Positions 1 through 43,842 of a stretch of DNA of 56,697 nucleotides are shown piece by piece (positions within the stretch are counted from its first letter, which is position 1; every line of letters starts with the position of its first letter). Source of the DNA: an archaeon (GTDB lineage: Archaea > Nanobdellota > Nanobdellia > Pacearchaeales > GW2011-AR1); assembly GCA_043817815.1 (NCBI GenBank), contig JBDRGM010000024.1, forward strand, positions 1 to 56,697, read 5' to 3'. Position numbers and translations under genes: made by a program. The notes beneath the pieces were generated by a model, which saw only the letters and a program-made list of their open reading frames with translations, was not told the origin of the DNA and made no database searches.

Positions 1-387
1 ACTTGGGTAGATTCCCCCAAAAATTTTAGGAACAGGAATATCTTTAATCGCATTCGCAAGTTCTAATCCTTGGTCATAAGTCATTTCTAAAATAGAAAAT
101 CCAATCAACCCAGGATGATAATCCCAAACAGCTTTTCTAAAATCTTCTTTAAGTTTTTCAGGACTCATCTTTATCCTCTTAACACCGTATTTTTCTAAAT
201 CAACTTTGATAACTTGCCCAGAATCTTCACGATAAAAATCTCCGGTCTCCTTACCTGTATCATAAAAAGTAGTATCATAAAGTTTCACCTCATGCCCTGC
301 TGCTTTAAGATGACTAGAAAGAACAGAAACCCCAACAGGAATTAAACTATCCATTCTATCGTTTGGGTAAACAAGCATAACTCTCAT
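1..387 (-). CDS. Partial B12-binding-domain radical SAM protein (N-terminal 129 aa only; the rest lies beyond the left window edge)
   Basis: Own translation of the minus strand from the ATG at 387 gives MRVMLVYPNDRMDSLIPVGVSVLSSHLKAAGHEVKLYDTTFYDTGKETG..., open to position 1. The N-terminal architecture matches the seven complete B12-type radical SAM ORFs in the window. CxxxCxxC is not visible because of truncation. Not in the supplied ORF track. Confidence 0.5.
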   Translation of the reverse strand, partial: MRVMLVYPNDRMDSLIPVGVSVLSSHLKAAGHEVKLYDTTFYDTGKETGDFYREDSGQVIKVDLEKYGVKRIKMSPEKLKEDFRKAVWDYHPGLIGFSILEMTYDQGLELANAIKDIPVPKIFGGIYPS

Positions 388-433
388 GATAAAATTGTAA
401 TCTCACTCTCTTTTAAAGATTATCAAAGTAAAC

Positions 434-1528
434 TCAACATATCCTCTTCAAAATCTCTCCCAACCCTTCCTCAGTCAACACTCTTGGATTATTCTCTAAT
501 CTCTCGGGATTATTAAATGCATTTTCAATTACAAATTCTGCGTCAACACCCAATTTTGATAATCTTGTCTCTAAATCAATTCCCTCAATCAAACTATTAA
601 TTATTTCCGAAGCTTCTTCAACACTTCCCACACCAATAATCTCAACTAATTCATCAATTGTTTTCTTAACATGCCCTGCACCTCTTTTATCATTACAATC
701 TTCTTGAGTTACCTTTGAATTATATTTTAACATTTCTCCTAAAGTCAAACCAACAGCATGTCCGTGAGGAACATCAAGATAAGATGTCATTGGATAAGCA
801 AGTGCATGACAAGCAGTTGTTTTTGAGATATTAATTGCTTTGCCCGCCAGATTAGACGCCAGCATCATCTTTTCTTTTGCGTTTTTATCCTCGCTGTTAA
901 CAGCTCTTTCTAAGTTTTCAAATACTAATCTAACTGATTCTTCTGCAAATCTTTTTGATTCATTTGTTGAATGAATTGACCAGTAAGATTCAATTGCCTG
1001 ACTCAAAGCATCCATACCATTAGAAGCTGCAATTTTTTTAGGAAGATTATAAACAAATTGTGGGTCGCAAATTGAATAATTTGGAAGAGTAATCTCCGGC
1101 TCTCCTTTAGATTGTTTTTCTTTTTCAATATAATAAACAATAAAATAAGTTGCTTCACTTCCTGAACCTGCTGTTGTTGGAATTGCAACCAAGGGAATTT
1201 TCTCACCAGTCTGCTGAAAATCAAAAAGCTTAATCGCTTTTGCAACATCAATTGCACTTCCACCACCAATACCCATAATACAATCATAATCTCTTTCATT
1301 GAATATTCCAAATCCCTTTTCTATTTCTTCTATTTTTGGATTAGGAGAAAAATCACAAAATCTTTCATAATCAACATCTTTTAAATTTTCTTCTATCCCT
1401 CTTTTTGCTCCACAAGTTTCATAAGAATTCCTTCCAGTAACAAGAAAAACATTTTTAGCATTTTCTCGTTCTAAAATATCTTTTAGATTCTTAATACTTC
1501 CGAAGCCGAAATGTTCTTGTTGAGTCAT
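434..1528 (-). CDS. Iron-containing (group III) alcohol dehydrogenase; by context phosphonoacetaldehyde reductase-like (FomC/PhpC type)
   Basis: 364 aa. Carries the GGGSAIDVAKAIK motif and the His-rich metal region CHALAYPMTSYLDVPHGHAVG typical of the Fe-ADH family. Its ATG overlaps the stop of the upstream Ppd-fusion gene (ATGA at 1525-1528). The substrate assignment is contextual inference. Confidence 0.75.
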   Translation of the reverse strand: MTQQEHFGFGSIKNLKDILERENAKNVFLVTGRNSYETCGAKRGIEENLKDVDYERFCDFSPNPKIEEIEKGFGIFNERDYDCIMGIGGGSAIDVAKAIKLFDFQQTGEKIPLVAIPTTAGSGSEATYFIVYYIEKEKQSKGEPEITLPNYSICDPQFVYNLPKKIAASNGMDALSQAIESYWSIHSTNESKRFAEESVRLVFENLERAVNSEDKNAKEKMMLASNLAGKAINISKTTACHALAYPMTSYLDVPHGHAVGLTLGEMLKYNSKVTQEDCNDKRGAGHVKKTIDELVEIIGVGSVEEASEIINSLIEGIDLETRLSKLGVDAEFVIENAFNNPERLENNPRVLTEEGLGEILKRIC

Positions 1529-4017
1529 TTTAATAAATTACTTGAGTATTCCACAAGTTCGTCCCATCCATTAACTTTTTTAATATTGGAGAGTACTTCA
1601 TTTTCACTTCCTCCAAAAAGCAAACAATTTACTTCCACTTGCTCATTAGGCATATGCCTAACATCATCATCAACAAATAAACAAGCATTATGGTATTTCG
1701 CAATACCCACCTTTTTTGAACCTGCAATTGGGTTGACATTTGCATATAGGGGGTCTTGTACAGAATAAATTCCTTTAAAACAATTGGATATATTATATTG
1801 CCTGCACCATTCTCTTAGGTTTTCTGTGTGGTCTTCTCTTCTCTGCGATACAAGATATAAATCCGCTATTTTCGACAAATTAAAGATTCCATTTAGTGCT
1901 CCTTCTTTTGGAGAAATTTGCAATGTGCCTTCCCTAGAATAAACATAAAAGCCCATTTGATCGTAAACTTTTTCTCCAATCATAGGAACAAGTTCTGGTT
2001 TGCTACATTGATAGGGTTTTAAATTCTCTAGAAATCTTCTGTCTTCTTGGAAATTTTCTTTGAGCCATTGAATTTTTTTTGCTCCAGTATCTAAAATAAC
2101 ATCATCCCCATCCAATAAAACTACTGGTTTGATTGTCCCAAAAGACCTCATAAACATTTCTTTATTTTCTTGAGGAGTAGAAGTTGGTCTTCCAAGGTCT
2201 TTTCTCGCACCCTTATTAACTTTAACAACAATCATATTAGGTCCTTCAAAATATTTCATTCCTTTTATTGAATTCACCAAATCTTGTTTCTTTTCAACTG
2301 TTTTAACATTATTATATCCGCAAGCTCTTGCAACTTCCCCAAAATCAACATTACTTGAATTTGTTGGCTGCCCCCCTGTTGAATCATAGGAACTATTATC
2401 AAAAATTATATGCGTAAAATTTTTTGGTTTGTAATTTCCTATTGTAGATAATGCTCCCATCTGCATCAGAACTGCTCCGTCTCCATCAAAACAATAAACT
2501 TTTTTATCTGGCTTTTGCAATGCTATTTCTGCAGCAATTGAAGCAGAACAACCCATGCTACCAACAGTCAAAAAATCTTTTGGAGTTTCTCCCCGATTAA
2601 TTCTTAGTTCAAATAATTCTCTTGAGGTTTTTCCAGTAGTGGATATAACTACCTCATTCCCTTGAAGATTGTCAATAACAGTTTTAATTGCATTTTCTCT
2701 TGACATTTCATAAGCGGTTCTAAAAATATTTCTTGGATTATATTCTTCAAAAGTTTTTTTTTTAATAATTATTGCAGATGCATAGTTATTTTGTTCTGCA
2801 GTTTCCTTAGCACGACTTATAACCTCTCTTGCTTCTTCAATATTACCTGGCAAGATTTCATAAGGAATTTCCAATGTCTTAAGCTGCGACTCCATAATTC
2901 TTCCCATCATTTTATGTTGTGGTTCATCTGGCTTTTCAGGTTCTCCTCTCCAACCAATCATCAAAACCATTGGAATAGCATAGACTTCTTTTGATGCTAA
3001 AGATGTTAAGGGGTTTACTATTTTTCCAAGTCCTGAATTCTGCATGTAAACAACACCTGTTTTTCCTGTTGAAAGATGATATCCTGTTGCATGAGCAACA
3101 GCTTCGCATTCATTACAAGCAACTCTGTTTATTAAGCCATTTCCATCTCCTAAAAATTTCATCCAATCTTTAAAAGTAGAATCAGGAACACCTGAAAAAA
3201 AAGTTAAATCATTTTCCTTAAATGCATTTGCTAACTCATGACAAGAAATTATAGCTTCTTTTTTGGGTTTTAAATATTCTTTTGCCTCTTCTAAATCTTC
3301 TGGATGATCTATCTCTGCGCATTCTCTTTTGGATAAAATAGAGTTGATGGTGTTTCCTTCTTCTATCAATCTCCGAAGAAGAAAAGAAGGTGAAGGAAAT
3401 TTAGAAATTTCTCCAGATTCAATTAAATTTTTTATTCTCCCAATAAATTCATTACTCCCTGTTTTTGAAAATTTTAAAATCCCAACAGTCTCTCCACTAG
3501 TCTCTTCAGGACCTAATTCTTTTGAAATTTTTTTAATAATGCCTCTTTCAATTAGAACTTTTGTTGAGCCTTTTTCAATTCTTTCTCCATGATAACTTTC
3601 GTAAGATTCTTCTATTCCATATTGAATTTTTTTAAAATTATCAACAACAATACAGAAATCATTATTATCCTGAAGGAGATTTTTGATAACTTCCTCTTCA
3701 ATATAGACATCACCCATGAGAAGAATAAACGGTGATTCTAATTCTTCTCTTGCACAATATAAACTTTCTAAAACTCCCGTTTCACTATATCTTGGATTTA
3801 AATAAAATTTTAAATTAAAATCTTTTGTGGCTTCTATAATCTTCTCTTTTTTGTAACCTACAACAACACTGATATCATTGATTCCATTTTTTTTCAAAAC
3901 TTCAACTTGATTTCTGATTATTGATTTCCCATTTATTTCTAAAAGACATTTTGGGTTATCTTTTGTCAATTCCCCCATTCTTGATCCAATTCCTGCAGAG
4001 AGTATTATCGCCTTCAT
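1525..4017 (-). CDS. Three-domain fusion: LicC/PntC-type nucleotidyltransferase + phosphonopyruvate decarboxylase (ThDP) + HAD-like phosphatase domain
   Basis: 830 aa. aa 1 to about 250: MKAIILSAGIGSRMGELTKDNPKCLLEING (NTP-transferase G-rich loop). aa about 255-625: FFSGVPDSTFKDW ... CFDGDGAVLMQMG ... IIFDNSSYDSTGGQ (Ppd-like with a ThDP GDG..N motif). aa about 635-830: VVLLDGDDVILDTG and ACLFVDDDVRH (HAD motifs I and IV). Confidence 0.8.
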   Translation of the reverse strand: MKAIILSAGIGSRMGELTKDNPKCLLEINGKSIIRNQVEVLKKNGINDISVVVGYKKEKIIEATKDFNLKFYLNPRYSETGVLESLYCAREELESPFILLMGDVYIEEEVIKNLLQDNNDFCIVVDNFKKIQYGIEESYESYHGERIEKGSTKVLIERGIIKKISKELGPEETSGETVGILKFSKTGSNEFIGRIKNLIESGEISKFPSPSFLLRRLIEEGNTINSILSKRECAEIDHPEDLEEAKEYLKPKKEAIISCHELANAFKENDLTFFSGVPDSTFKDWMKFLGDGNGLINRVACNECEAVAHATGYHLSTGKTGVVYMQNSGLGKIVNPLTSLASKEVYAIPMVLMIGWRGEPEKPDEPQHKMMGRIMESQLKTLEIPYEILPGNIEEAREVISRAKETAEQNNYASAIIIKKKTFEEYNPRNIFRTAYEMSRENAIKTVIDNLQGNEVVISTTGKTSRELFELRINRGETPKDFLTVGSMGCSASIAAEIALQKPDKKVYCFDGDGAVLMQMGALSTIGNYKPKNFTHIIFDNSSYDSTGGQPTNSSNVDFGEVARACGYNNVKTVEKKQDLVNSIKGMKYFEGPNMIVVKVNKGARKDLGRPTSTPQENKEMFMRSFGTIKPVVLLDGDDVILDTGAKKIQWLKENFQEDRRFLENLKPYQCSKPELVPMIGEKVYDQMGFYVYSREGTLQISPKEGALNGIFNLSKIADLYLVSQRREDHTENLREWCRQYNISNCFKGIYSVQDPLYANVNPIAGSKKVGIAKYHNACLFVDDDVRHMPNEQVEVNCLLFGGSENEVLSNIKKVNGWDELVEYSSNLLK

Positions 4018-5045
4018 TTTTTTCTTAACACTGGAAAAGTCTCCAAGATATTTTTATAATTTCCCATTACTATCCCAGAACCTTTTTTAATTAATTCTGG
4101 AATTTTTTCTTTGGGAATAAAAGGGGCGGGGCTTGAGCCAGCGATTCTGTATAATATTGTTGCTCCCGCATATTTAACCATTCTTCTTTCAATCCCTTCC
4201 AATCCAAGAGAAGTTATTTCATCCAGATATCCCTTGGCAATAGATTCAATTGCAGATTCTGTTATATTGTTATTTCCATTTAATAATGCAAATAAAAGAT
4301 AATGCCCTGTAGCAAGACCAATATCATAAGCAGGATCACCTATTCCTGAAGCAGTTTCAAAATCAACTATTCCAATACCTGCATTTGGTCTTTGAAAAAT
4401 ATTTTTAGGACAGCAATCAGCATTAATAAGGACATTATATTTATGTCTTGTATTAGCACTATCATAAAGCCTTCGCAATTCTCCCAACACTTTTTCATCT
4501 TTAACTTTTATTCCTGTTGTTCTTGCATTAAGCATGAGTTCCCAATTTTCTCTATCTTCCTTTTTCTTCCTAATATTATTTCTTTTTCCATATGTATGTT
4601 TGTGGGAAATTCCTAAAAACAATCCGATATTTCCAGCAACATCTTTCTTAAAATCCCCTTTTAAGAGGGCTTCTTGAAGTAGAACTCCCCCATCTCCTTT
4701 AACATCAGAAGTAATTAGGATATTGTTTAGAGAATCATAAGAAAAGACTTTCGGTATTCTAATCTCTTGAGGCATAATATTTTCAAGAGAGAGAAGAGCA
4801 TTCTTTTCAGATTCAATTCTCTGTGGAGGAAGAGATTGCAAATCATTTCCCACTTTTTCAGGATATTTTACTTGTTCGAGTGCTTGTTTAAAATAAACAT
4901 CTCCTTTATCTGTTCCTACCCGATATACAAAATTTAAAAGTCCTATATCAATAAACTCTGTTTCTTTTACTTCTGCATCTAGCAAATCTTTGCATTTATT
5001 AACAAAATATCTCTCTCTAAAATCTGGGTCTCTTAATTCTCTCAT
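4014..5045 (-). CDS. APH/choline-kinase/methylthioribose-kinase-fold small-molecule kinase
   Basis: 343 aa. Catalytic-loop-like INADCCPKNIF and metal-binding IGIVDFETAS (DFE equivalent of DFG). N-terminal FIDIGLLNFVYRV resembles the MTR/choline kinase nucleotide loop. Start and stop overlap neighbours (ATGA at 4014-4017). Substrate unknown. Confidence 0.6.
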   Translation of the reverse strand: MRELRDPDFRERYFVNKCKDLLDAEVKETEFIDIGLLNFVYRVGTDKGDVYFKQALEQVKYPEKVGNDLQSLPPQRIESEKNALLSLENIMPQEIRIPKVFSYDSLNNILITSDVKGDGGVLLQEALLKGDFKKDVAGNIGLFLGISHKHTYGKRNNIRKKKEDRENWELMLNARTTGIKVKDEKVLGELRRLYDSANTRHKYNVLINADCCPKNIFQRPNAGIGIVDFETASGIGDPAYDIGLATGHYLLFALLNGNNNITESAIESIAKGYLDEITSLGLEGIERRMVKYAGATILYRIAGSSPAPFIPKEKIPELIKKGSGIVMGNYKNILETFPVLRKK

Positions 5046-5054
5046 CTTAAGTTT

Positions 5055-6422
5055 TTATCTCCCTCCATGAATCAATTCTAAAATTTCTTTAATAGGCATG
5101 CAATCCCCCTCACATTCATGAGCTCTTCCATGAAGTAGTATTCCCTCAGCTGTCTTTTTCATTGCAGGATATGCACTTCTAAGAAGATGATTTGCATAAA
5201 TCACCATGTTCACCCCGACATCAATTAATTCTTCTTCTTTAATATGACTGTATGCAGAAGGAACCGCCACTAAAGGAACTTTGTTTTCAAATTTAGAATA
5301 CTCTTTGCAAAATTCAAAAATTTCTTTGCAATCCTTTTTTTTGCTGTGAATCATTATTGCATCTGCACCTGCTTTAATATATGCTTGTGCCCGAATCAAA
5401 GCATCATAAATCCCTTTGCCTAAAATCAAACTTTCAATTCTTGCTATAATCATGAAATCTTGTTCTAATTGTGCCCTTTTTCCATTAGAAATTTTTTCTG
5501 CAAATCTTGAAACCTCTTCTTGCACCTGCTCAACTTCAGTTCCAAATAAAGAATTTTTTTTCAGCCCGGTTTTATCTTCGATTATAACTGCAGATACTCC
5601 CAATCTTTCTAAGGTTCTAACCATAAATGTAAAATGTTCAATTTCTCCACCATTGTCTCCATCTAATATAATTGGTTTTGTTGTTGAATCTAAAACCTGT
5701 GTTATAGTATTAATTCTTGAAGTTAAATCAACAATTCCTGTATCTGGCTTACCTTTAGATACTGAATCAGTAAGACTACTTATCCAGACTCCATCAAATT
5801 CTTTTTTTGAATGGTCTTTTTTAACAACTGTTTTTTCAGCTATTAATGCAGTCAACCCATTATGAACCTCAAGAATCCTAATCATTGGTTTAAATTCAAA
5901 TAGTCTTCTTAATCTTTTCATTCTGACCTCTGAAGTTATCCCTATCTCTTTCATTCCTTCTTGTAATTTTGTTGAAGAAATATTTTTTGTGTAGGGCACT
6001 TCAATCATTTGCCCTCCCCATTCACTCAATGCATCTATCACTCTTTGCCGAATGTTTTGTTGAATACCTGTTCTCCAATCATCTCCGTGGACAACATAAT
6101 CTGGTCTGACTTTTCTCAAAGTTGGAACATAATCAAAATTTTCCTGTGGAACTACTTCCTTCACCCCCTTTATATTTTCCGCAATTATTCTTCTCTGTTC
6201 AAATGGAATCAAAGGAACTCTCTTATAACTTGCAATTGCTTCATCAGTTAGTAAACCAACAACAACATCCCCATATTTAACTGCTTCTCTTATAATATTA
6301 ATATGCCCATGGTGCAATAAATCTGCACATAATCCTACATAAACTTTCTTTCTACGCCCTTCGCTGAAATTGCCAATCTCTTCAGTATTTTCCAGGTTCA
6401 AATCTTTTTTCTCTTGTGTCAT
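5055..6422 (-). CDS. pepM: Bifunctional cytidylyltransferase - phosphoenolpyruvate mutase (Fom1-type fusion)
   Basis: N-terminal half: [23 protein letters not shown] (HxGH cytidylyltransferase motif). C-terminal half: [19 protein letters not shown], i.e. the EDKxxxxxNS signature that separates PEP mutase from other isocitrate-lyase-superfamily members. The track start 6464 is a TTG; the ATG at 6422 (MTQEKKDL...) is preferred. It still overlaps the upstream radical SAM gene by 41 nt. Confidence 0.85.
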
Positions 6423-7800
6423 TTTTATTATACTCTCTATTAAATTTAGCAGCAAGTTCTTCAACTTCTACTGATGTAAAGTCCTTTGTGTTAATATTCC
6501 CTAATTTGAATAACTGCTCATTCCAACCAGCACCCTTTCTCAAATAATCTTTTTTTTCGCATATATTTAACAATTCTGAACCTACTAATGGAGTTGCAGC
6601 AAAAAAACTTGAACTATCAAATCCACAATCACTCACAAAATTATATGTCTCATTCATATTTTCAATTGTTTCTCCAGGTAAACCACAAATAGCAAAAGAA
6701 TGAACCTTAATCCCAATTTCTTGGGCTTTTTTTACAAGGGGTTTCACCTTCGCTAAATCAAGTGGCTTCTTGACAATTTCATTTAAAACTCTTTGATTTC
6801 CACTTTCAACAGCAAATGTTAGCTGATAAAATCCAGCCTCCTTCATTTTTTCTAGCAATTCATTATCTAATGCCCACGCAGCAAGACCTTGCGGAGCACA
6901 CAAATGCAATCCAAAATCTTTAATTGCATCTAGAATTTCCATAGCTCTATTTTTATTTAATGTAAAATTATCGTCTGTAATCTGAATTTCATCTATATTA
7001 TATTTCTCTTTTAGTTCCTTTATTTCATTAATGACACTTTGTGCGCTTCTTCCCCTATAACGATTTCCCCAAAAATTTGTTGTTGTGCAAAAAACACATC
7101 TAGCAGAGCACCCTCTTGAAGTCATAATCTGAGCAATTCTTTTTCCTTTTGGGTATGGATTTTGAGGAGTATTTATCCTAAAATACATTTCCATATTTAA
7201 TAAATGTCTTGCAGGAAAAGACAGACTATTCAAATCCCCAATATACTGCTTTTTCGAATTAATGAATTTAATCCCTTCATATTTTCCAGCCAAGCCATCT
7301 ATTTCTGAAACATCTTTATCATTATTCAGAGCATCAAGTAATTGAGAAGTAGGAAGTTCCCCCTCTCCCAAAACAATAAAATTAACTATATCTAAAAAAT
7401 CTCCTACAGCATAAGTTGGATGTGAACCTCCAACTAATGTGATTATATCTTCATCAACTTCTTTAGTAATTTTTAAAACATGTTTCGCATTTCCCGCTTG
7501 CGAAGAAAATATGCAGGAAACACCAACAACGTCTGGTTTAAATCCATCAATTTTTTTCTTTACTGTTTCATCATCCAACCCATAAGTCACAAATTTCCCA
7601 TCATCACTTTCAACAGCATTATCATACCCCTCATTAGCAATATCTAAAATTTTAACTTCATAACCCTCTCTCTCCAAAAATCCTCCCAAATAAGCAAGAC
7701 CAATTGGTGTTATGCACCTCCTGACATCCTCCTTGAATAATGTATACCTCGGAACCATCAACATTACTTTTTGCACCTTTTTTACACAATCTTTTATCAT
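6382..7800 (-). CDS. B12-binding-domain (class B) radical SAM enzyme, Fom3-like by context
   Basis: 472 aa. N-terminal Rossmann-like B12-type domain (MLMVPRY...[22 protein letters not shown]; VGGSHPT). Radical SAM cluster motif [14 protein letters not shown] (CxxxCxxC). First gene of the phosphonate operon. Confidence 0.85.
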
Positions 7801-7861
7801 TACATATAATTATATACAATTACTTTTTAAAGATTGCTTAGTATTCTTAGGTAATAAAATT

Positions 7862-8083
7862 TTAGATATAACCCAATTTCTCTAACCGATTCTTAATCTC
7901 TCTCTCTGTTTTTTTATCTAAAACTTCTCCATCAATAGAATCAGGGGAAGAAAGAATCTGCCTCAAGATAAAACAAATATACGCAGAAACAGAATGCATA
8001 CCTGTTCCTTTAATTTTTTCCTTAATAGAATTTATCAAAGGCATAGGCAGTGAAACTGTACCATACTCTCTATCTTTTTCCAT
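7862..8083 (-). CDS. Ribbon-helix-helix (CopG-like) small DNA-binding protein
   Basis: 73 aa. GTVSLPMPLINSIKEKIKGTGMHSVSAYICFILRQIL fits a beta-strand/helix/helix RHH layout. The C-terminal tail RLEKLGYI is shared with ORF 9601..9885. Confidence 0.45.
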   Translation of the reverse strand: MEKDREYGTVSLPMPLINSIKEKIKGTGMHSVSAYICFILRQILSSPDSIDGEVLDKKTEREIKNRLEKLGYI

Positions 8084-8164
8084 AATTTATTTATGAGAAG
8101 ACTATATTAAAACATTTCTATTAATCCCATAAAAATTTAAAAATAGCTATAAACTACGAATTAA

Positions 8165-9598
8165 ATGCAAAAGAAAAATAATAAACCAAACATAATTTTT
8201 ATAACAATAGATGCCTTAAGGGCAAGAAACCTTGGCTGCTATGGTTATCACAGAAACACCTCCCCAAATTTAGACTCCTATGCAAAACAAGGAGTTTTGT
8301 TTGAGAAGTTTTTTTCCTCTTATAATTGTTCTCACAAATCATTTTTGTCAATTCTTAGTGGAAGACATGTGTTAGGACAGGACCTCGAGCACTATCCTTC
8401 AAAAAGAGAGATGAAATCCTTTTTTGATACAGGAGGAATTCTTTTGTCTGAAATACTTCAGAAAAATGGATATAAAACACATTTTTTAAGAAAACTATTT
8501 GGCTGGCAAAAGATTGGTTTTGATTACTCCCTTAAACAAGAGGCCCAAGAAGCATCTAAAAAGTGGAATATAATCAGATTTATTAAAAAAAGCAATAAGA
8601 TTTATAACATAGCACAATACGTCTTACATAACTCTTACGCTATTCCTGAAAAATTAGAAAGTAAAATAAGGTCGAATAACACTGGAGAAACAGCCACAAA
8701 TGAAGCAATAGAAATAATAAGGCAAAACAAAAAAAATAATTTTTTCTTATGGCTCCATTATACTGACGCTCATGTTCCCCACATTTTTCCACACTCATTT
8801 AGTGGCAAATTCACACCAAAAAAAGAAAGCAAGAGAATATTTGAAATCCCTGAATTCAATAAACGTAATAAAAAGGATATAGGTTTTTTAAAAGCCTGCT
8901 GGAAAGCTAAAGACACTGTTGAAGACATAATCGCAAAATATGATACAGCCATCTCATATGATGATTGCCTGATAAGTAAAATCGTAGATACTTTAAAAGA
9001 AGAAGATTTATTAAAAGACACAATTATATTCATTTTTGCAGACCATGGAGAAAGCCTAAAGGAGCATGGATTATATTTCACCCATTGCGGTTTTTATGAT
9101 ACTACTTTTCATATACCTTTAATCCTCTTTGGAAAAGGAATTTTAAAAAACAAAAGAATAAAGGCATTAACTCAATTAGAGGATATTACCCCCACTATCT
9201 TAGATTTAGCAAAGATAGAATATGATCCTGCTTTATTCGATGGTAAAAGTTTAGTTCCTCTAATGACTGAAGAAAAAGACAAGATAAGAGAATCTATTTT
9301 TATGGAAGAAAGGGCTTGTGGACTAATAAAAAGGGGAATAAGAACTGAAAAATATAAATACAGCGAATCACCTGAATCGGGATATTCAACATGCCTTCTT
9401 TGTAACACAAATCATGGAGGAACTGTTAATTTGTATGATTTGGAGAAAGACCCAGAAGAAAATATAAACCTTGCAAAAGAAGATAAAAAAATTTTAATTA
9501 AAATGAAATCAAAACTAAATAAAACAATAAAAGATTTGAAAACAACAGATGAGAAAAGAAGAATAAAAACTTTTATTAATAAGACTCTACATAGATAA
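8165..9598 (+). CDS. Alkaline-phosphatase/sulfatase-superfamily protein lacking the canonical formylglycine signature
   Basis: 477 aa. N-terminal NIIFITIDALRARNLGCYGY (metal-ligand Asp region) and IFADHGESLKEHG (sulfatase-family DHGE motif). The position where C/S-x-P-x-R is expected reads NCSHKSFLSILSGR. Confidence 0.7.
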   Translation: MQKKNNKPNIIFITIDALRARNLGCYGYHRNTSPNLDSYAKQGVLFEKFFSSYNCSHKSFLSILSGRHVLGQDLEHYPSKREMKSFFDTGGILLSEILQKNGYKTHFLRKLFGWQKIGFDYSLKQEAQEASKKWNIIRFIKKSNKIYNIAQYVLHNSYAIPEKLESKIRSNNTGETATNEAIEIIRQNKKNNFFLWLHYTDAHVPHIFPHSFSGKFTPKKESKRIFEIPEFNKRNKKDIGFLKACWKAKDTVEDIIAKYDTAISYDDCLISKIVDTLKEEDLLKDTIIFIFADHGESLKEHGLYFTHCGFYDTTFHIPLILFGKGILKNKRIKALTQLEDITPTILDLAKIEYDPALFDGKSLVPLMTEEKDKIRESIFMEERACGLIKRGIRTEKYKYSESPESGYSTCLLCNTNHGGTVNLYDLEKDPEENINLAKEDKKILIKMKSKLNKTIKDLKTTDEKRRIKTFINKTLHR

Positions 9599-9600
9599 AA

Positions 9601-9885
9601 ATGGAAGAAAAAATAACCCTTTTGATATCTAGAGAATTAAAAGAAAGAATAGAAGAAAAAATAAATAAAACAGAGTTTAAATCAGTTGAAAATTATCTCT
9701 TATATTTTCTAGAGCAGATTGTTTCTGAGGAGGAAGGAACTTGGGAACAAGGCTATACTGAAGAGGAAGAAAAAGATATTAGGGGTCCTGGAGCACTTTC
9801 CAGAGAAGATACCCAAAACTCTCCTTATAGTGAAGAAGATGAAGCTGCTCTGAAAAAAAATCTTGAAGACTTGGGTTACCTCTAA
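9601..9885 (+). CDS. Ribbon-helix-helix (CopG-like) small protein with acidic linker; paralogue of 7862..8083
   Basis: 94 aa. KITLLISRELKERIEEKINKTEFKSVENYLLYFLEQIV (RHH-like), an acidic Glu-rich linker, and a C-terminal NLEDLGYL matching RLEKLGYI of the other RHH ORF. Confidence 0.4.
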   Translation: MEEKITLLISRELKERIEEKINKTEFKSVENYLLYFLEQIVSEEEGTWEQGYTEEEEKDIRGPGALSREDTQNSPYSEEDEAALKKNLEDLGYL

Positions 9886-10125
9886 TTCCTATTAAATATT
9901 TTACTCTTTAGGAAGATAACAAGGATTTAAAAAAAGAGGTATATCTTAAAGAATGTTAAATATGAATAATTAAAAAATGGCGAATAAAGAATTAGTTTTA
10001 ATGGGCTTGTTTTTCCTTGATTTATTTGTAATATTCTATGCTGTTTTAATGGCCAGATTAAAAGTAAAACTCGATGTGGAATATATAAAGGGACAAAAGA
10101 AGAAACTGTGGGGGATGCAGTAAAT

Positions 10126-10617
10126 ATGAAAAAATTGAATTTTGGATGTGGGACAAATATTTTAGAAGGTTACGATAATATAGATATTCAGAAAGGAGAG
10201 GGAATAATCAAGAGTTTTGATTTTGATAAATTTCCTTATCCAATCAAAGACAATACTTATGATGAAATTCTCTTTGAGAATACAATCGAACACTTATATA
10301 AACCAGAGAAAGCATTATTAGAACTTCATAGGATTTGCAAGTCAGACGCAAAAATAATCATAAAGGTTGTTTATTACAACAATAAAGGAGCATATACAGA
10401 TATGACTCATAGAAGTTTTTTCTCAGAGAGGAGTTTTGTTAATTTTGTCAATGAGGTTAATGTTCCAGATAAACAAAAAATGTTTGAGTTAGTCTCCTTA
10501 AAATTAATTCCTTCAAAATTTGGAGGCATTTTTCCAAAACAATTCCGAAGAAGGTTAAGTTCAATCCTGTCAGGGGTAATCAAATTGATTCATTTGGAAT
10601 TGAAAGTAATCAAATAG
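10126..10617 (+). CDS. Class I SAM-dependent methyltransferase
   Basis: Motif I LNFGCGTNILEGYDNIDI. ILFENTIEHL (motif II/III region). The track start 10108 is a GTG; the ATG at 10126 (MKKLNFGCG) is preferred. Confidence 0.7.
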   Translation: MKKLNFGCGTNILEGYDNIDIQKGEGIIKSFDFDKFPYPIKDNTYDEILFENTIEHLYKPEKALLELHRICKSDAKIIIKVVYYNNKGAYTDMTHRSFFSERSFVNFVNEVNVPDKQKMFELVSLKLIPSKFGGIFPKQFRRRLSSILSGVIKLIHLELKVIK

Positions 10618-10618
10618 A

Positions 10619-11443
10619 TTATTTTTTCTTACAAATTATCATATAATTTATTATCCCTAATAGACCAAACTTGGCTAAAATTCTTTTAGGCAGGCTTTCT
10701 TGAGTTTCAATTAGTTTTTTTAATTCATCTATATTTTCATACAATCCAATATCTCTTCCAATCTCTTCTTTAACAGGAACAAAGTTTTTTGAAATTAAAA
10801 CTTGAATGTCGTTTAATGTAAACATATAAGGGTGATGGATATTAAATATCTCTCTAGTTAAAATTTCCTTCAATTTTCCGTAAATCTTCGCTATATAAAT
10901 AAATTTTTTTTGATAAATATAATTCTCAAGATGAAAAATCCCCTCGTTTTTTAAGACCCTTTTTATCTCAGAAAAAACTCTGTCTGGAAGTTCTGTGTGA
11001 TCCAAAACATTAATTAAGATAACCACATTAAAATATTCGTCGGGAAATGGGATTTCTTCACCCCTTCCTTTTTTGAGATTACTTGATTCATAATCAAACT
11101 TGAATCTTTTTTTATAAAAATCAGCCAAGGGGTCTATAGAATATCTTTCTCCTTCTTTAAAATAATTAATAACATCTTCAGGTCCACAACCAATTTGTAA
11201 AATTTTAGTATTTTTATCTGTTTTAGTAAAATGAGACCAGTCTTCTAATAAAATTTCAGCTTTTTTTGGATATCTATCTCTTGATTCATTTAAAAGTGAT
11301 TCAGTTGTGTAATCCTCCCAAAATTCTTCCTCAGAATTTTGTGCAATTTCCCAGCGCTTAGCATCTGTTTTTCCTTTTAATTTACTTCTACGAGTTTCAT
11401 TAGTTCCTTTTTTTAAGTCATTTAACAATTTTTTAGATATCAT
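10619..11443 (-). CDS. Class I SAM-dependent methyltransferase
   Basis: 274 aa. Motif I ILQIGCGPEDVINYF; VVILINVLDHTELP; GIFHLE. Only 1 nt from the upstream radical SAM gene. Confidence 0.7.
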   Translation of the reverse strand: MISKKLLNDLKKGTNETRRSKLKGKTDAKRWEIAQNSEEEFWEDYTTESLLNESRDRYPKKAEILLEDWSHFTKTDKNTKILQIGCGPEDVINYFKEGERYSIDPLADFYKKRFKFDYESSNLKKGRGEEIPFPDEYFNVVILINVLDHTELPDRVFSEIKRVLKNEGIFHLENYIYQKKFIYIAKIYGKLKEILTREIFNIHHPYMFTLNDIQVLISKNFVPVKEEIGRDIGLYENIDELKKLIETQESLPKRILAKFGLLGIINYMIICKKK

Positions 11444-11444
11444 C

Positions 11445-12854
11445 TTAACTGTTCTTAAAATTTCTCATCCCAATAAAGGGCAGTACAACACCATCTCTCC
11501 ATATTAAAAATCTTTTAGCACTTTTTAAAATATGTCTGTAATCACCAACATTTAACCAATACCTTAGTCTTTTAATTTTGTTTCTATGAAATCCCGTACT
11601 TATAATTTTTTGAATAGTTCTGATTATATGCTCATCAGGAATTTCACTGACTTTGTGTTTTACTTCTATCTTTAATGTGTTCCCAGTCCATTTAACCCAT
11701 TCTTCTAATGTTTCAGGTTTTGTAATCAAACTTCTTGAAACACAGTAGTCAAATAAGGGGGCTCCTGGAAGAGGCAGATATATCTTAGCATTCGGAAGGT
11801 CTGGCTTATATTTTTTCACAAAATTCAAAGTCATGTTTATTTCTTCAACAGTTTCAGTAGGAAGTCCAACCATGAAACTTGCATCGCAGGTTATACCATG
11901 TCTCATACATTTTTTAACAGCATCTATGTTTTGTTGTATTGTTGTTCTTTTATTTAAAAAATTTAAAACTCTCTGGCTTCCAGATTCTATTCCTATCTGA
12001 ATTGTATGACACCCCGCATCCTTCAACACCTTTAACACTTCATTATCCAAGTCATCTGCTCTTGCAAAACAAAAAAAGTGCACTCCTTTATTTTTTAAAT
12101 ATTTACAAACTTCAATTGTTTGTTCCCGATTAGATAAGAAATTATCATCTGCAATTGAAAAGGTTTTTATTTTGTATTTTTCAATTAATTTCCTAAAGAA
12201 TTCTATCATCTGTTCAGATGTATAGCTTCTAACACAAGGTTTCCCGTTTACCCCCCAGCTTCGTGTAGAACAGCAAAAAGTACAATTCCCACTACAACCT
12301 CTACTTAAAACAACATAGATATGACCATATTTTTTAAGTTCAAGTAAATCATAATTAGGAAGCTTGAGTTTGGCAACATCAATAAAGGGTCTTAAGGGAT
12401 TCTTATTGACATTTTTCAGTTTTCCTAATTTTTTCGGATTTTTATCAAATGTATCACAAAATTCTAAAAACGCTTCTTCACCCTCGCCCCTAATAATGTA
12501 ATCTATATAAGGCTCTTTTAAAACAGAGTCTGGGTCAACAGAAGCATGAATCCCCCCAACAACTATAATCGCTCCCTCCAAAACACTCTGGGTTAACTTC
12601 CCAAGATGCATTACATCGTGAAGCATCGGAGTGGTCATGCTTGTAAGACCAATTATGTCGGGTTTATATTCTTTCAAGAGTTTCGTATAATCCTCGTCAT
12701 GAGGGTAAATATTTCTATCATAGATTTTAACTTCATGCTTATCTTCTATTGCAGTTCCAAGATAAACTAAATTTATTGGAGTATTAATCCTTTCCCTTCT
12801 AAATTCATTATTTTTAAGGTCATCATGAGGTTCAATCAATAAAACTCTCGCCAT
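11445..12854 (-). CDS. B12-binding-domain (class B) radical SAM enzyme
   Basis: 469 aa. MARVLLIEPHD...NLVYLGTAIEDKHEVKIYD, VGGIHAS (B12-type domain). LSRGCSGNCTFCCS (CxxxCxxC). Confidence 0.85.
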   Translation of the reverse strand: MARVLLIEPHDDLKNNEFRRERINTPINLVYLGTAIEDKHEVKIYDRNIYPHDEDYTKLLKEYKPDIIGLTSMTTPMLHDVMHLGKLTQSVLEGAIIVVGGIHASVDPDSVLKEPYIDYIIRGEGEEAFLEFCDTFDKNPKKLGKLKNVNKNPLRPFIDVAKLKLPNYDLLELKKYGHIYVVLSRGCSGNCTFCCSTRSWGVNGKPCVRSYTSEQMIEFFRKLIEKYKIKTFSIADDNFLSNREQTIEVCKYLKNKGVHFFCFARADDLDNEVLKVLKDAGCHTIQIGIESGSQRVLNFLNKRTTIQQNIDAVKKCMRHGITCDASFMVGLPTETVEEINMTLNFVKKYKPDLPNAKIYLPLPGAPLFDYCVSRSLITKPETLEEWVKWTGNTLKIEVKHKVSEIPDEHIIRTIQKIISTGFHRNKIKRLRYWLNVGDYRHILKSAKRFLIWRDGVVLPFIGMRNFKNS

Positions 12855-12857
12855 TTT

Positions 12858-13649
12858 CTATTTTCCTAAACCTTTCTCATTTAATTCAGATATTTTTTTT
12901 GATTTATATTTTGATAAAAACTTAGCCACTTTTTCAAACAATTCAAAGTCATCCAAATATGCCATTGTTGCAGGATGGATCAATATTATACTTGGAACTT
13001 TATTTTTTTCATTTTCTTTCACTCTTTTCTTTAAAATTTCAAACCACTCTTCTACCTTTATCCTGCCTTTTGTGCATGAAGCAAAAGGGTCGCGATTTTC
13101 AGGTCTTAGTTCTCCATAGATAATTGTGTTTTGGTCTACAGGAATATTAATCGGTAAATGAATCATTCCCCCTGATTCAAAAGGCTTTTTATCTCCTAGT
13201 AAATCTGAAATATATAAAACCCCTTCTTTTTGTAAAATTTCAAAAGTTTTTCTATTAGAACCAAACGCATGAGTTCTCCATGAACTCATTTTCAAACCTT
13301 TCTTTTCAAAAGCTTCTTTTGTTTTTTTAATATCTTTTTTTTGAAACTCAGAAGAGCCATATATACAGCCATAAATTCTCCTGTAAATATAACTTTTAAT
13401 AATGTTCATTTTTCCGAAATTATCATAGGTATGCCCCCCTAATTGAATATCATATTCTAGCAATTCGTTTATCTCTTGAGATTCATTTTTATTATCTAAG
13501 CTTATGCCATTAACAAAAAGCGTGCAATTTAACCCATACTTTTTCAAAATATCAAGATACTTCTTAGATGCTTTAATTTCAGAACCTATTTTTTTTTGTT
13601 CCCATGTCTTCAATTTGTTTGAATGAACATCTCCTGTAATAAATATCAT
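12858..13649 (-). CDS. Putative polysaccharide deacetylase-like (CE4/NodB-like) protein, divergent
   Basis: 263 aa. FITGDVHS, LGGHTYDN and SWRTHAFGS sit in the order and spacing of CE4 motifs 1-3, but all are degenerate. Start overlaps the stop of the upstream gene (13646-13649). Confidence 0.35.
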   Translation of the reverse strand: MIFITGDVHSNKLKTWEQKKIGSEIKASKKYLDILKKYGLNCTLFVNGISLDNKNESQEINELLEYDIQLGGHTYDNFGKMNIIKSYIYRRIYGCIYGSSEFQKKDIKKTKEAFEKKGLKMSSWRTHAFGSNRKTFEILQKEGVLYISDLLGDKKPFESGGMIHLPINIPVDQNTIIYGELRPENRDPFASCTKGRIKVEEWFEILKKRVKENEKNKVPSIILIHPATMAYLDDFELFEKVAKFLSKYKSKKISELNEKGLGK

Positions 13650-16360: not shown

Positions 16361-16421
16361 TTGATAATACTCCTATGAATATTAACACATGAATGAAAAA
16401 TTTTATATTTTATTTTCATTT

Positions 16422-17411
16422 TCAGATATTTTCTCTTTCCTCTTTATATTTATCAAAATTATTTCTTACATAATCTACAACTTCAGTCAAACCTTGTTCA
16501 AGGGAATATATAGGTTCCCATCCCAAGACGTTTTTTGCTTCTGAATTATCTCCTAATAACATCATCACCTCACTTTTTTCTGGTCGAATTCTTTCATCTT
16601 TTGTTTCAATTGTAAATTCTTTATTAATTATTGATTTAATTTTTTCAACAAGTTCTTCAATCGAGATAGTTTTACCAGAACTAATATTAATTGTTTTTCC
16701 AATTGACTCATCAGATTCAGCAACTTTGATAAATCCTCTGACAACATCTTTTACATAATTAAAATCTCTCTTTGGAGACAATGAACCTAGTTTTATCTTA
16801 TCATTTGTTAAAGCCTGATAAATAATTGTGGGTATAACTGCTCTCATTGATTGTCTTGGTCCATAGGTATTGAAAGGTCTAATTGTTGCTACAGGGAGAT
16901 TGTACGTCCTGTAAAAACTTTCAGCAAGTTTGTCTGCAGAAATTTTTGTAGCAGAATAAGGTGATTGTGCTTGCAAAGGGTGTTTCTCATTCATCGGAGA
17001 ATAAATAGCAGTCCCATAAACTTCAGATGTGGAAGTCACAACAACTTTTTTTACATCATATTCTCTAGAAGCTTGAAGTATATTTAATGTTCCTATTATA
17101 TTTGTCTCAACAAAATCGCGAGGGTCATCATAAGAATATGGAATTGAAATCAATGCTCCTAAATGAAAAACAACATCAACATCTTTCACAGCTCTTTTAA
17201 CACAATCATAATTCTTTAAATCTCCCCTAATTATCTCTATTTCATTGAGTATCTCTTTAGGGAGCTCCTTTAGATTTTTAATATTTCCGTCAGAATTATA
17301 TCTAACCAAAGCTCGTACCTTTGAACCCATCTTAACTAACTCCTCTGTCAGATGACTTCCAATAAATCCTCCAGCACCTGTAACCAGCACTCTTTTGCCT
17401 TTTAGTTCCAT
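16422..17411 (-). CDS. NAD-dependent NDP-sugar epimerase/dehydratase (extended SDR)
   Basis: 329 aa. VLVTGAGGFIGSHLTEEL (GxxGxxG), TSTSEVYG, SPYSATKISADK (YxxxK). Confidence 0.85.
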   Translation of the reverse strand: MELKGKRVLVTGAGGFIGSHLTEELVKMGSKVRALVRYNSDGNIKNLKELPKEILNEIEIIRGDLKNYDCVKRAVKDVDVVFHLGALISIPYSYDDPRDFVETNIIGTLNILQASREYDVKKVVVTSTSEVYGTAIYSPMNEKHPLQAQSPYSATKISADKLAESFYRTYNLPVATIRPFNTYGPRQSMRAVIPTIIYQALTNDKIKLGSLSPKRDFNYVKDVVRGFIKVAESDESIGKTINISSGKTISIEELVEKIKSIINKEFTIETKDERIRPEKSEVMMLLGDNSEAKNVLGWEPIYSLEQGLTEVVDYVRNNFDKYKEERENI

Positions 17412-17521
17412 AATTTTTGAACAAGTGCGAGGTATTTAAAGATTGTTAAGAAAGAATACATCATTTAGAAGTATTTTTAAAAAATACATAACTTCTTAAA
17501 TCTCTAATTTAGTCCTAAGAA

Positions 17522-18010: not shown

Positions 18011-18174
18011 GAGGTGCTTGGGGAAATGCTTCAATGGTTGGAAAAGTTTTAGGAATAAAAATCCCAGAATATGATTTTATACAAGTGATGTCATTAGGAC
18101 AAAAACCATTAGATTCTTTTAGAGAATATAAAGAAAACTTTATTTATGAAATGAATCCTGAAAAATAGATAAAA

Positions 18175-18783: not shown

Positions 18784-18865
18784 CTATCAGCATAAAAAAT
18801 TTAAGTTATAAATCTTTTCAATTTTCTATAACAAAGCATATAAACCTCTCTTATGATAGAGAAAA

Positions 18866-22259: not shown

Positions 22260-22330
22260 CTTAATCTCGAGATAGATTTATTTATAAAAATTTATGTAGT
22301 GGAGATATGTAATAGATAAATTTTTTATCT

Positions 22331-23572: not shown

Positions 23573-23670
23573 AAAATATTTCCGACAACTTAATTTATAA
23601 GTATTGTTGTAATTTTTTATAAGTATTTGAGATATATTAAATTTTTAAAGAGAAGTCCTTTTTAATTAAA

Positions 23671-24441: not shown

Positions 24442-24457
24442 TTAATAAATCAAAGTC

Positions 24458-25594: not shown

Positions 25595-25610
25595 AAATAT
25601 TTATAACACA

Positions 25611-26660: not shown

Positions 26661-26737
26661 TTAATCCTCCTTTGTTTTTCATTAAGCTTTCAATCAAAAA
26701 GTCTTTTAAAAGAATTTATGTAGTTGAGTTATATAGA

Positions 26738-29183: not shown

Positions 29184-29216
29184 TAATTATTTAAATCAAG
29201 AATATTACAAATTTTA

Positions 29217-31721: not shown

Positions 31722-31856
31722 TTCCCAACCTCCAATATTTTTAATTCCCCTTCTAATCCATTTAAATGAGCGAATAGATTTGTTTCCATCTTTATTATAA
31801 CTATCTGGTAACTATTCCTTAAATATGTCTTTTAAGTTTTTTGGTAACTTTATCAT

Positions 31857-43841: not shown

Positions 43842-43842
43842 A

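Follow-up and report, generated by a model that had tools for sequence, protein, structure and literature searches.

A predicted pathway for a nucleotide-activated phosphonate in a DPANN-type archaeon

A phosphonate operon in a Pacearchaeales contig

The contig JBDRGM010000024.1 (assembly GCA_043817815.1) comes from an archaeon of the Pacearchaeales (GW2011-AR1), and its whole length of 56,697 nt is referred to here as the window. Six consecutive minus-strand open reading frames (ORFs) fill positions 1..7800 of the window. The operon that they form probably makes a nucleotide-activated derivative of 2-hydroxyethylphosphonate (HEP) that is attached to a cell-surface glycoconjugate of this DPANN-type archaeon, and the probability of this reading is put at about 60%. 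A more detailed version of it is tentative. In this version, a conserved DPANN operon with a related form in Omnitrophota would combine Fom1-type cytidylylation with one or two cobalamin radical S-adenosylmethionine (SAM) enzymes and yield a C-alkylated phosphonate such as 2-hydroxypropylphosphonate, which would be esterified to glycan via a Ser/Thr alkaline phosphatase (AP)-fold transferase. Loci retrieved for comparison are given L-numbers (L001 and so on), and homologous proteins from the database listing are given P-numbers (P0247 and so on).

The operon encodes, in this order, a first radical SAM enzyme (radical SAM-A), a Fom1-like fusion protein, a kinase, an 830-aa fusion protein that contains phosphonopyruvate decarboxylase (Ppd), an iron-dependent alcohol dehydrogenase (Fe-ADH), and a second radical SAM enzyme (radical SAM-B). 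An earlier reading of this DNA made from the sequence alone had placed the six ORFs at the same coordinates, and the ORF translations confirm them. It had also described overlapping start and stop codons throughout the operon. The five junctions measure -41, +9, -4, -4, and +46 nt, so that overlap holds at three of them (-41, -4, and -4) but not at the other two. The 41-nt overlap lies between radical SAM-A and the Fom1-like fusion, and the same overlap is found in the Nanoarchaeia loci L008 and L009. The motifs quoted in the sequence-only reading (HxGH, EDKxxxxxNS, FFSGVPDS, GDGAVLMQMG, and GGGSAIDVAK) can all be read in the translations, and Pfam profile hidden Markov models (HMMs) support its domain calls for the operon genes. 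Three features go beyond it: a 73-aa gene at the operon head, the LicC-like and NT5C-like domains of the 830-aa protein, and a neighboring enzyme that lacks the formylglycine motif.

The phosphonate core: Fom1-like fusion, Ppd, and Fe-ADH

The 455-aa Fom1-like fusion (5055..6422, minus strand; PF01467 + PF13714) consists of an N-terminal cytidylyltransferase domain (residues 21-160; 5943..6362, minus strand) and a phosphoenolpyruvate (PEP) mutase domain (5064..5912, minus strand). The NCBI gene call for this protein (P0001) agrees with an ATG start at 6422. The PEP mutase domain scored 398 bits on TIGR02320, which is above the equivalog cutoff of 319.55, and 185 bits on PF13714, and it matched the PEP mutases 5unc and 1m1b in the PDB with an E value of ~1e-42. 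The translation also contains EDKxxxxxNS, a motif defined as specific to PEP mutase (Ppm) (PMC6697681). On rival models, the same domain scored 98 bits (prpB, methylisocitrate lyase) and 147 bits (phosphonopyruvate hydrolase). In other words, the mutase half does not cluster with isocitrate or methylisocitrate lyases, because its PEP mutase score is ~4 times its methylisocitrate lyase score. The cytidylyltransferase domain scored 60.6 bits on PF01467 and carries HHGH as its HxGH motif. Its ungapped alignment with the Fom1 crystal structure 5x3d contains 81 identities in 140 positions (58%; E=6e-56). The Fom1-type fusion of a cytidylyltransferase with a PEP mutase that had been proposed earlier is therefore upheld by PF01467, 5x3d, and TIGR02320.

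The Ppd domain occupies residues 256-625 of the 830-aa protein (2143..3252, minus strand). It scored 443 bits on TIGR03297, above the equivalog cutoff of 312.5, and is 48-74% identical to the stand-alone Ppd proteins of L001, L002, and L008. The rival families gave 141 bits (sulfopyruvate decarboxylase beta) and at most 45 bits (acetolactate synthases). With a Ppd score ~3 times that for sulfopyruvate decarboxylase, the domain does not group with sulfopyruvate or acetolactate-type thiamine diphosphate (ThDP) enzymes.

The Fe-ADH (364 aa; 434..1528, minus strand) matches PF00465 and PF25137 and contains the GGGSAIDVAK motif. It falls outside the phosphonate-associated PsrA/Phn_Fe-ADH family (TIGR03405), scoring 152 bits vs a cutoff of 423.7. 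Over its full length, it is 38-54% identical to the Fe-ADH domains of nine proteins in which Ppd and Fe-ADH are fused, and such fusions are very common among the database homologs. Fe-ADH also comes after Ppd in L001-L004, L006, L007, and L008. Its fold and its link to Ppd suggest that Fe-ADH is a phosphonoacetaldehyde reductase that makes HEP.

The early pathway can be laid out from these enzymes. Sequence evidence predicts that the PEP mutase domain would convert PEP to phosphonopyruvate and that the Ppd domain would convert phosphonopyruvate irreversibly to phosphonoacetaldehyde. Homology and conserved context suggest that Fe-ADH would then produce HEP and that the Fom1-type HxGH cytidylyltransferase would combine HEP with CTP to form CMP-HEP. 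The HMM scores and the identity to 5x3d support the earlier proposal that a Fom1-type fusion, Ppd, and Fe-ADH lead to HEP and its CMP conjugate. Ppd renders the phosphonate route irreversible in the biosynthetic direction, and a catabolic reading of the operon was rejected for this reason.

Conservation of the operon across DPANN archaea and bacteria

The Fom1-like fusion has at least 8,000 homologs. Among the matches listed, identities of 65-84% were found in many metagenome-assembled genomes (MAGs) labelled Woesearchaeota, Pacearchaeota, Nanoarchaeota, or Nanoarchaeia, and a genome scan with the single protein returned four loci, all of them (4/4) from DPANN. In the Woesearchaeota loci L001, L002, and L019, the gene order is AP-superfamily gene(s), 73-aa gene, radical SAM-A, Fom1-like fusion, stand-alone Ppd, and Fe-ADH, and their radical SAM-A proteins show 70-72% identity. 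The order of radical SAM-A, Fom1-like fusion, Ppd, and Fe-ADH is kept in these three loci and in the Nanoarchaeia loci L008 and L009. In L008, a 536-kb contig, these four genes are followed by a gene for a 526-aa radical SAM enzyme. A related arrangement is found in the Omnitrophota bacterium of L007, in which a radical SAM-A homolog (45% identity) is divergent from a PepM-NTP_transf_3 fusion, and the genes after this fusion encode Ppd, Fe-ADH, and another B12 radical SAM. The same locus also has a stand-alone Fom1-type cytidylyltransferase (58% identity) beside a third radical SAM. A fusion between these last two was considered and rejected, since the cytidylyltransferase is a separate ORF immediately downstream and the two are adjacent only.

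The sequence-only reading had regarded such an operon as unusual for a reduced-genome archaeon. This view does not hold, because the core recurs in Woesearchaeota and Nanoarchaeia and related arrangements occur in Pacearchaeota and Omnitrophota; the same fusion is present in many DPANN MAGs, and its typical neighbor genes have already been described. The novelty lies in the way that a conserved pair of cobalamin radical SAM enzymes and an AP-fold enzyme surround the Fom1/Ppd/Fe-ADH core in DPANN, and in the small, highly conserved protein encoded at the operon head. The LicC-Ppd-NT5C architecture and its partner kinase are also new and are found on this contig only. No account of phosphonates in Woesearchaeota, Nanoarchaeota, or Pacearchaeota was found in the literature searched, and a mention of DPANN in PMC11066067 is unrelated to pepM.

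Some comparison loci display further genes near the phosphonate cluster. A CDP-alcohol phosphatidyltransferase and a PMT-type GT-C glycosyltransferase (8569..9348 and 6462..8561) lie upstream of the operon in L008 and L009, together with a stand-alone PF01467 cytidylyltransferase. These neighbors hint that the activated phosphonate goes to lipid or protein O-glycans in some lineages. A giant gene, annotated with 8,605 residues and having no Pfam match, lies near the cluster in L007 (17020..21590, running off the locus), and L005 has an orphan soluble protein (5906..6625) that matches neither Pfam nor NCBIfam.

Cobalamin radical SAM enzymes of the operon

Radical SAM-A (6382..7800, minus strand) had been called a class B (cobalamin-binding) radical SAM enzyme. 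It contains a B12-binding domain (PF02310, 71 bits) as well as a radical SAM core (PF04055, 87 bits), as expected for this class, and its CxxxCxxC motif reads CSARCVFC. The best NCBIfam match of radical SAM-A is Sden_1168 (NF038361), with which it aligned over nearly the full length at 338 bits (E=9e-101), under the family cutoff of 575. On PhpK/BcpD (TIGR04479), it scored 87.6 bits vs a cutoff of 600. The physiological substrate of SD_1168 is unknown, and its reaction is given as 'C- or P-methylation' (PMC9204698). In a similarity network, SD_1168 groups together with Fom3, MoeK5, and HpnJ (PMC9204698; PMC12931638), and a 2026 review places it among Csp3 methyltransferases (PMC12931638). Because the natural substrate of SD_1168 is itself unknown, the match to Sden_1168 transfers no function to radical SAM-A. 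The PDB contains no Fom3 chain, and no protein among the listed homologs bears the name Fom3.

The genomic context of radical SAM-A was drawn from a metagenome scan with the family alignment, which gave 80 loci. Relatives with at least 50% identity have PepM adjacent to them in 10 of the 12 loci that had enough flanking sequence. The clusters of pepM-free relatives at 35-45% identity contain further B12 radical SAMs, NDP-sugar dehydratases, glycosyltransferases (GTs) of families GT2 and GT4, and DegT, NeuA, and NeuB genes. As PepM adjacency is frequent only at or above 50% identity, the wider radical SAM-A family acts in nucleotide-activated glycan chemistry, and only the subclade at or above 50% is tied to the Fom1-like gene.

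Radical SAM-B is cut by the contig end, and only its N-terminal 129 aa are present (1..387, minus strand). This fragment has no HMM match of its own. However, it is 70% identical to the N-terminus of the 526-aa B12 radical SAM at the same operon position in L008, which bears out its description as a truncated second B12-type radical SAM. The NCBIfam matches of the full-length L008 enzyme are all weak, the best being PhpK at 84.6 bits vs a cutoff of 600. The L008 enzyme is 37% identical, over its full length, to the radical SAM part of P0242 and P0245. Both of these proteins also contain Ppd, so that Ppd is physically joined to a radical SAM-B-type enzyme in them.

How might these enzymes act on the phosphonate? 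Fom1 makes CMP-HEP (PMC6697681), and Fom3 methylates CMP-HEP (PMC8992657). Radical SAM-A is a candidate methyltransferase acting on the CMP-phosphonate, and a methylation of the Fom3 type is plausible. Based on the operon coupling and the Fom3 precedent, one or both of the cobalamin radical SAM enzymes would alkylate the CMP-phosphonate, most likely by C-methylation to CMP-2-hydroxypropylphosphonate.

The alkaline phosphatase-superfamily enzyme and the small proteins

An enzyme of the AP superfamily with a 'sulfatase' fold (8165..9598, plus strand) is encoded next to the operon head. It matches PF00884, in line with its earlier description as a sulfatase-superfamily protein, and shows partial matches to EptA/MCR phosphoethanolamine transferases. 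However, the formylglycine motif C/S-x-P-x-R (CxPxR) is absent, and the window reads CSHKS instead. In six AP-superfamily orthologs, the Cys position is occupied by C/G/V/V/V/A, there is neither the Pro nor the Arg, and the residue after the Cys position, S56 in the window, is a conserved Ser or Thr. The protein has neither a transmembrane segment nor a signal peptide and is cytoplasmic. From its sequence, it looks like a Ser/Thr-nucleophile AP-superfamily phospho(no)transferase or hydrolase, and this describes it better than sulfatase. Orthologs that are 52-62% identical to it occur upstream of radical SAM-A in L002, in L019, and, as two copies, in L001. The enzyme is a candidate CMP-phosphonate phosphonyl-transferase or hydrolase. 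Its conservation and active-site make-up suggest that it would use the CMP-phosphonate anhydride in the cytoplasm, releasing CMP and transferring the phosphonyl moiety onto an acceptor sugar or glycan, or hydrolyzing it. The acceptor would be built by the surrounding glycosyltransferase and NDP-sugar genes. In L006, a type I phosphodiesterase/nucleotide pyrophosphatase (PF01663; 13774..14961) directly follows Fe-ADH and a sulfatase-fold gene lies upstream, so that two different AP-superfamily enzymes accompany the same core.

The head of the operon is a gene for a conserved 73-aa protein (7862..8083, minus strand). In L001, L002, L006, L010, L012, and L019, an ortholog with 70-85% identity immediately precedes radical SAM-A or the Fom1-like gene, and the protein is more conserved than the enzymes of the operon. 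It belongs to no Pfam family. Its AlphaFold2 (AF2) model, with an extended N-terminus followed by three helices, was of low confidence (pTM 0.36). The protein may be a ribbon-helix-helix-type regulator or an unknown subunit of the pathway. A 94-aa acidic protein (9601..9885, plus strand) is conserved 3' of the AP-superfamily gene, with 47% identical orthologs in L001 and L019, and appears to be a distant paralog of the 73-aa protein. In a tblastn search, the 73-aa protein was 31-33% identical to the 94-aa orthologs of L001 and L019 (E values of 5e-9 to 3e-5). A direct pairwise comparison of the 73-aa and 94-aa proteins of the window was not significant.

An accessory module of kinase, LicC-like, and NT5C-like domains

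Two genes of the operon, the kinase and the 830-aa protein, bring in an accessory set of activities. The kinase (343 aa; 4014..5045, minus strand) is a small-molecule kinase of the APH fold (PF01636, 42.6 bits) with a weak match to methylthioribose (MTR) kinase on NCBIfam. A phmmer search of the PDB with the kinase gave no match, and a two-sequence profile matched only PsiK (E=1e-3) and MTR kinase, both weakly. The second sequence is an ortholog at the same position in L005 (43% identity), and D210, N215, and D228 are kept in both copies.

The 830-aa LicC-Ppd-NT5C protein (1525..4017, minus strand; PF02776/PF02775 + PF12804/PF00483) carries a domain on either side of Ppd. The first is a LicC/PntC-like nucleotidyltransferase domain (residues 1-255; 3253..4017, minus strand; PF12804/PF00483) that scored 60.9 bits on PF12804. 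Its best PDB match is LicC (1jyk, E=4e-20), and it also matches PntC (6pd1, PntC-AEPT) with E=9e-9. The other is an NT5C-like HAD phosphatase/nucleotidase domain (residues 626-830; 1528..2142, minus strand), which was assigned from family motifs and relatives matching PF06941. Its family has 172 representatives. Over 50 sequences of the family, D11, D13, and K144 are invariant and D158 and D160 are at least 90% conserved, which gives the catalytic HAD motifs DxD (motif I), Lys (motif III), and DD (motif IV). PF06941 is matched by 38 of the 50 family members, while the window domain itself reaches 20.9 bits, under the gathering cutoff of 24.8. A Foldseek search with a structure model of modest confidence (pLDDT 62), which served as support for the motif evidence only, returned HAD hydrolases exclusively.

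P0247 (L005 4476..5858) resembles the 830-aa protein on both sides of Ppd. Its N-terminal half is 55% identical to the LicC-like domain and its other domain is 52% identical to the NT5C-like domain. Since P0247 links these two domains directly, without Ppd, the Ppd domain of the 830-aa protein sits inside a linker. Comparison of the two sequences indicates that a P0247-type two-domain protein received Ppd as an in-frame insert in its linker, an arrangement known from the assembled contig alone. No other full-length match to the 830-aa architecture was found among 5.8 billion proteins. The gene order in L005 is Fom1-like fusion, kinase, and LicC-NT5C, that is, the same accessory genes as in the window. 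The module resembles a LicA/LicC pair joined by a phosphatase, and it could activate an acceptor alcohol or sugar. The most likely task of the kinase and the LicC-like and NT5C-like domains would be to activate a second partner, either an alcohol or a sugar, or else to activate the completed phosphonate once more. The 830-aa protein is a clear case of one enzyme domain inserted into another, and it points to an uncharacterised kinase/cytidylyltransferase/phosphatase side-branch.

Glycan surroundings and missing late enzymes

Pfam scans showed that the ~50 kb around the operon contain GT2, GT4, and GT9 glycosyltransferases, NDP-sugar enzymes, and a polysaccharide deacetylase. Enzymes of the late fosfomycin and methylphosphonate pathways were also looked for. 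No window ORF of at least 110 aa matched an HppE-type cupin or DUF402 (FomD). MpnS and HepD were found neither among the annotated nor among the orphan window ORFs in a search by sequence only, which remote homologs can escape, and the orphan window ORFs had no sequence match to solved structures. The absence of HppE and FomD noted in the sequence-only reading thus extends to the whole window. A surface conjugate is far likelier than a free antibiotic, because no late fosfomycin or methylphosphonate enzyme was found and the operon lies in glycan-tailoring surroundings. The earlier preference for a surface head group over free fosfomycin is supported on the same grounds.

Weighing the alternatives

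Several points weigh against a methylated, glycan-linked product of the operon. All of the pathway after Ppd consists of predictions. The best family model for radical SAM-A is Sden_1168, matched below its cutoff, and the likeness to Fom3 rests on domain class and genomic coupling. Most of the ~65 relatives that share 35-45% identity with radical SAM-A lack pepM nearby, and PepM lies within 8 kb of 7 of them. Because the window contains eight B12 radical SAM genes, the adjacency of radical SAM and PepM could partly mirror a radical-SAM-rich island. In Pacearchaeota, the Fom1-like fusion, Ppd, and Fe-ADH of L003 and L004 have no radical SAM gene beside them, which means that the pathway can do without methylation. 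To assign the AP-superfamily protein a transferase role is guesswork, and there is neither LicD nor a CDP-alcohol phosphatidyltransferase in the window. The place of the kinase/LicC-like/NT5C-like module in the pathway is only proposed. One alternative is that the product is plain, unmethylated HEP on a glycan and that both radical SAMs act on nucleotide sugars of the glycan island. It would account for the mostly pepM-free glycan clusters of the 35-45% relatives, for the spread of eight B12 and six other radical SAMs through the glycan genes of the window, and for the Pacearchaeota loci in which the core has no radical SAM. It would not account for the subclade at or above 50% identity, which in 10 of 12 loci adjoins the Fom1-like gene, for the conserved 41-nt overlap, or for the fusion of Ppd with a radical SAM-B-type enzyme. 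Nor would it explain why the pepM-ppd-Fe-ADH genes of Omnitrophota L007 lie between a homolog of radical SAM-A and another gene for a B12 radical SAM. Plain HEP is on balance rather unlikely.

Other alternatives concern the destination of the phosphonate or the chemistry of radical SAM-A. CMP-AEP-dependent synthesis of phosphonolipids by the CDP-alcohol phosphatidyltransferase family is established (AEP, 2-aminoethylphosphonate). Phosphonolipid clusters of this kind have been named 'Burkholderiales_CDP-OH' (PMC8942020). The activated phosphonate could accordingly be a lipid head group, forming a phosphonolipid on archaeol or diacylglycerol and no glycan ester, and a CDP-alcohol phosphatidyltransferase does lie two genes upstream of the same operon in L008 and L009. 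However, neither CDP-OH_P_transf nor any other lipid gene was found among the scanned window ORFs, the neighbors are glycosyltransferases and NDP-sugar enzymes, and L008 also has the adjacent PMT-type GT-C. A lipid destination is therefore unlikely. It is very improbable that the product is a fosfomycin-type, small-molecule phosphonate antibiotic secreted in free form. Fom1, Fom2 (Ppd), and FomC (Fe-ADH) have counterparts in the operon, and Fom3 possibly does too, and FomD, the CMP-releasing hydrolase, could in principle be replaced by either the NT5C-like HAD domain or the AP-superfamily enzyme. But the 56.7 kb contain no HppE-type cupin epoxidase, DUF402 (FomD), FomA/FomB-type kinase, or exporter, and the operon lies within glycan genes and has a core that is common across DPANN MAGs. 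Similarly doubtful is a role of radical SAM-A as a P-methyltransferase whose product would be a phosphinate with a C-P-C linkage. Its best family is named 'Sden_1168 family B12-binding radical SAM P-methyltransferase' (E=9e-101), and SD_1168 is said to have P-methylated N-acetyl-demethylphosphinothricin in vitro in work by Allen and Wang in 2014. P-methylation requires an H-phosphinate, which is formed via HepD, phosphonoformate, and CPEP mutase. None of these H-phosphinate-forming genes (HepD/phosphonoformate/CPEP mutase) is present in the window, and the scores of 338 bits on Sden_1168 and 88 bits on PhpK are well under 575 and low, respectively. The reaction of SD_1168 is moreover unknown ('C- or P-methylation', PMC9204698), and SD_1168 is listed among Csp3 enzymes (PMC12931638). 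An activated HEP derivative on a surface glycoconjugate thus remains the preferred reading.

Comparison with known systems and significance

The operon shares its early part with the fosfomycin pathway of Streptomyces, namely the bifunctional Fom1 architecture (58% identity to 5x3d) and the Ppd and Fe-ADH steps, and in the operon, translation of a cobalamin radical SAM is coupled with that of the Fom1-like gene. It differs in lacking FomD, HppE (Fom4), and FomA/B, in having two radical SAMs instead of one, and in its glycan-gene setting and DPANN host. Its product is probably a conjugate, whereas that of Streptomyces is an epoxide antibiotic. The Pnt pathways for cell-surface phosphonates (Rice et al. 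2019, PMC6697681) likewise use a nucleotidyl-activated phosphonate, a Ppm-PF01467 fusion, and a PF12804 enzyme in a glycan context. However, their branch point is an AEP transaminase, while that of the operon is Fe-ADH (HEP), and here PF12804 is fused to Ppd and an NT5C-like phosphatase, and radical SAMs and an APH kinase are part of the operon. Ppm-PF01467 fusions make up 23.6% of bacterial Ppm, and 2.8% carry both types of nucleotidyltransferase (PMC6697681). HEP branches account for 8.5% of ppm neighborhoods, and radical SAM genes that flank ppm-ppd have been mentioned in passing for Campylobacter (PMC8942020).

Two further systems resemble single parts of the operon. SD_1168 (Sden_1168) of Shewanella denitrificans represents the best curated family for radical SAM-A and aligns over nearly the full length, but the score of 338 bits is under the family cutoff of 575. 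The LicA/LicC pair also places an APH-fold kinase beside a cytidylyltransferase like that of 1jyk, and such a pair recurs in L005. Unlike LicA/LicC, the operon has no LicD, its kinase is weakly nearer to MTR kinase and PsiK than to choline kinase, and its LicC-like cytidylyltransferase is fused to Ppd and a HAD nucleotidase.

Among archaea, Nitrosopumilus maritimus is reported to have a methylphosphonate/exopolysaccharide cluster, reportedly the one described by Metcalf et al. in 2012. Neighbors of pepM-aepY-phpC in bacteria and archaea include a kinase, nucleotidyltransferase, arylsulfatase, and glycosyltransferase and have been read as serving exopolysaccharide phosphonate esters (PMC9381506). 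The Nitrosopumilus maritimus and marine pepM-aepY-phpC clusters (PMC9381506) resemble the operon in that archaeal PepM, Ppd, and Fe-ADH lead to HEP beside sulfatase-fold, nucleotidyltransferase, kinase, and glycosyltransferase genes. In contrast to the Nitrosopumilus maritimus cluster, MpnS was not found in the window, B12 radical SAMs take the tailoring position, and the host belongs to DPANN instead of Thaumarchaeota.

Phosphonate decoration of surfaces is known in bacteria and Thaumarchaeota, and the genes for it are abundant in MAGs of Woesearchaeota, Pacearchaeota, and Nanoarchaeota. Surface chemistry is central to the biology of DPANN archaea because these organisms are thought to live attached to hosts. 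If the radical SAMs alkylate a CMP-phosphonate, Fom3-type chemistry would extend from one antibiotic pathway to a widespread envelope modification, and this would be its first case outside antibiotic biosynthesis. The clade of SD_1168-like radical SAMs would gain a physiological context, and the AP-superfamily fold would become a candidate for the missing phosphonyl-transferase/hydrolase step. The pathway would also be a candidate biological source of the C3 phosphonate esters whose presence in environmental high-molecular-weight organic matter has been inferred. Propylene release was reportedly described by Repeta et al. in 2016.

Other features of the window

A scan of the window for sigma-70 promoters and terminators gave results at chance level, and this kind of scan is inapplicable to archaea. 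The Rfam scan of the window revealed neither a cobalamin riboswitch nor another RNA family, and there are no tRNA genes in the window.

Fourteen radical SAM genes are present in the 56.7-kb window, eight B12-binding and six of SPASM or other types. The B12-binding ones lie at 1..387, 6382..7800, 11445..12854, 13646..16360, 30243..31721, 38417..39844, 41059..42597, and 48279..49817, and the SPASM/other types lie at 25611..26660, 32202..33218, 34152..35264, 35285..36202, 42708..43841, and 43843..44823. Across 1..49817, they are interleaved with GT2, GT4, and GT9 genes, short-chain dehydrogenases/reductases (SDRs), and methyltransferases. In other words, the window is an unusually radical-SAM-rich glycan-tailoring island.

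Several genes of this island encode unusual domain combinations. For example, the B12 radical SAM at 13646..16360 (minus strand) is part of a 904-aa triple fusion with a sugar-1-phosphate nucleotidyltransferase and an NAD-dependent epimerase/dehydratase, and a GDP-mannose-dehydratase-like gene lies next to it at 16422..17411. With this combination, one polypeptide may both make an NDP-sugar and apply radical SAM chemistry to it directly. In another protein (641 aa; 45680..47605, minus strand), an NTP-transferase is fused to a GT4 glycosyltransferase, and this protein would both activate and transfer a sugar. There are also two sets of split transketolase/DXS-like genes (21100..22259 and 26738..29183, both minus strand), in which the N-terminal ThDP part and the pyrimidine-binding part are separate ORFs. 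These may be sugar two-carbon transfer enzymes. In the second set, the transketolase/DXS-like ORF at 26738..28363 is fused to a SAM-dependent methyltransferase domain. An orphan soluble protein (23671..24441, plus strand) has no Pfam or NCBIfam match and contains the strings 'GHDT' and 'GDHDT', which resemble an HD-domain phosphohydrolase by eye only. The only clearly non-glycan functions in the window are QueC (7-cyano-7-deazaguanine synthase; 50559..51314, minus strand) and the adjacent ORF with a phosphoribosyltransferase domain (49820..50320).

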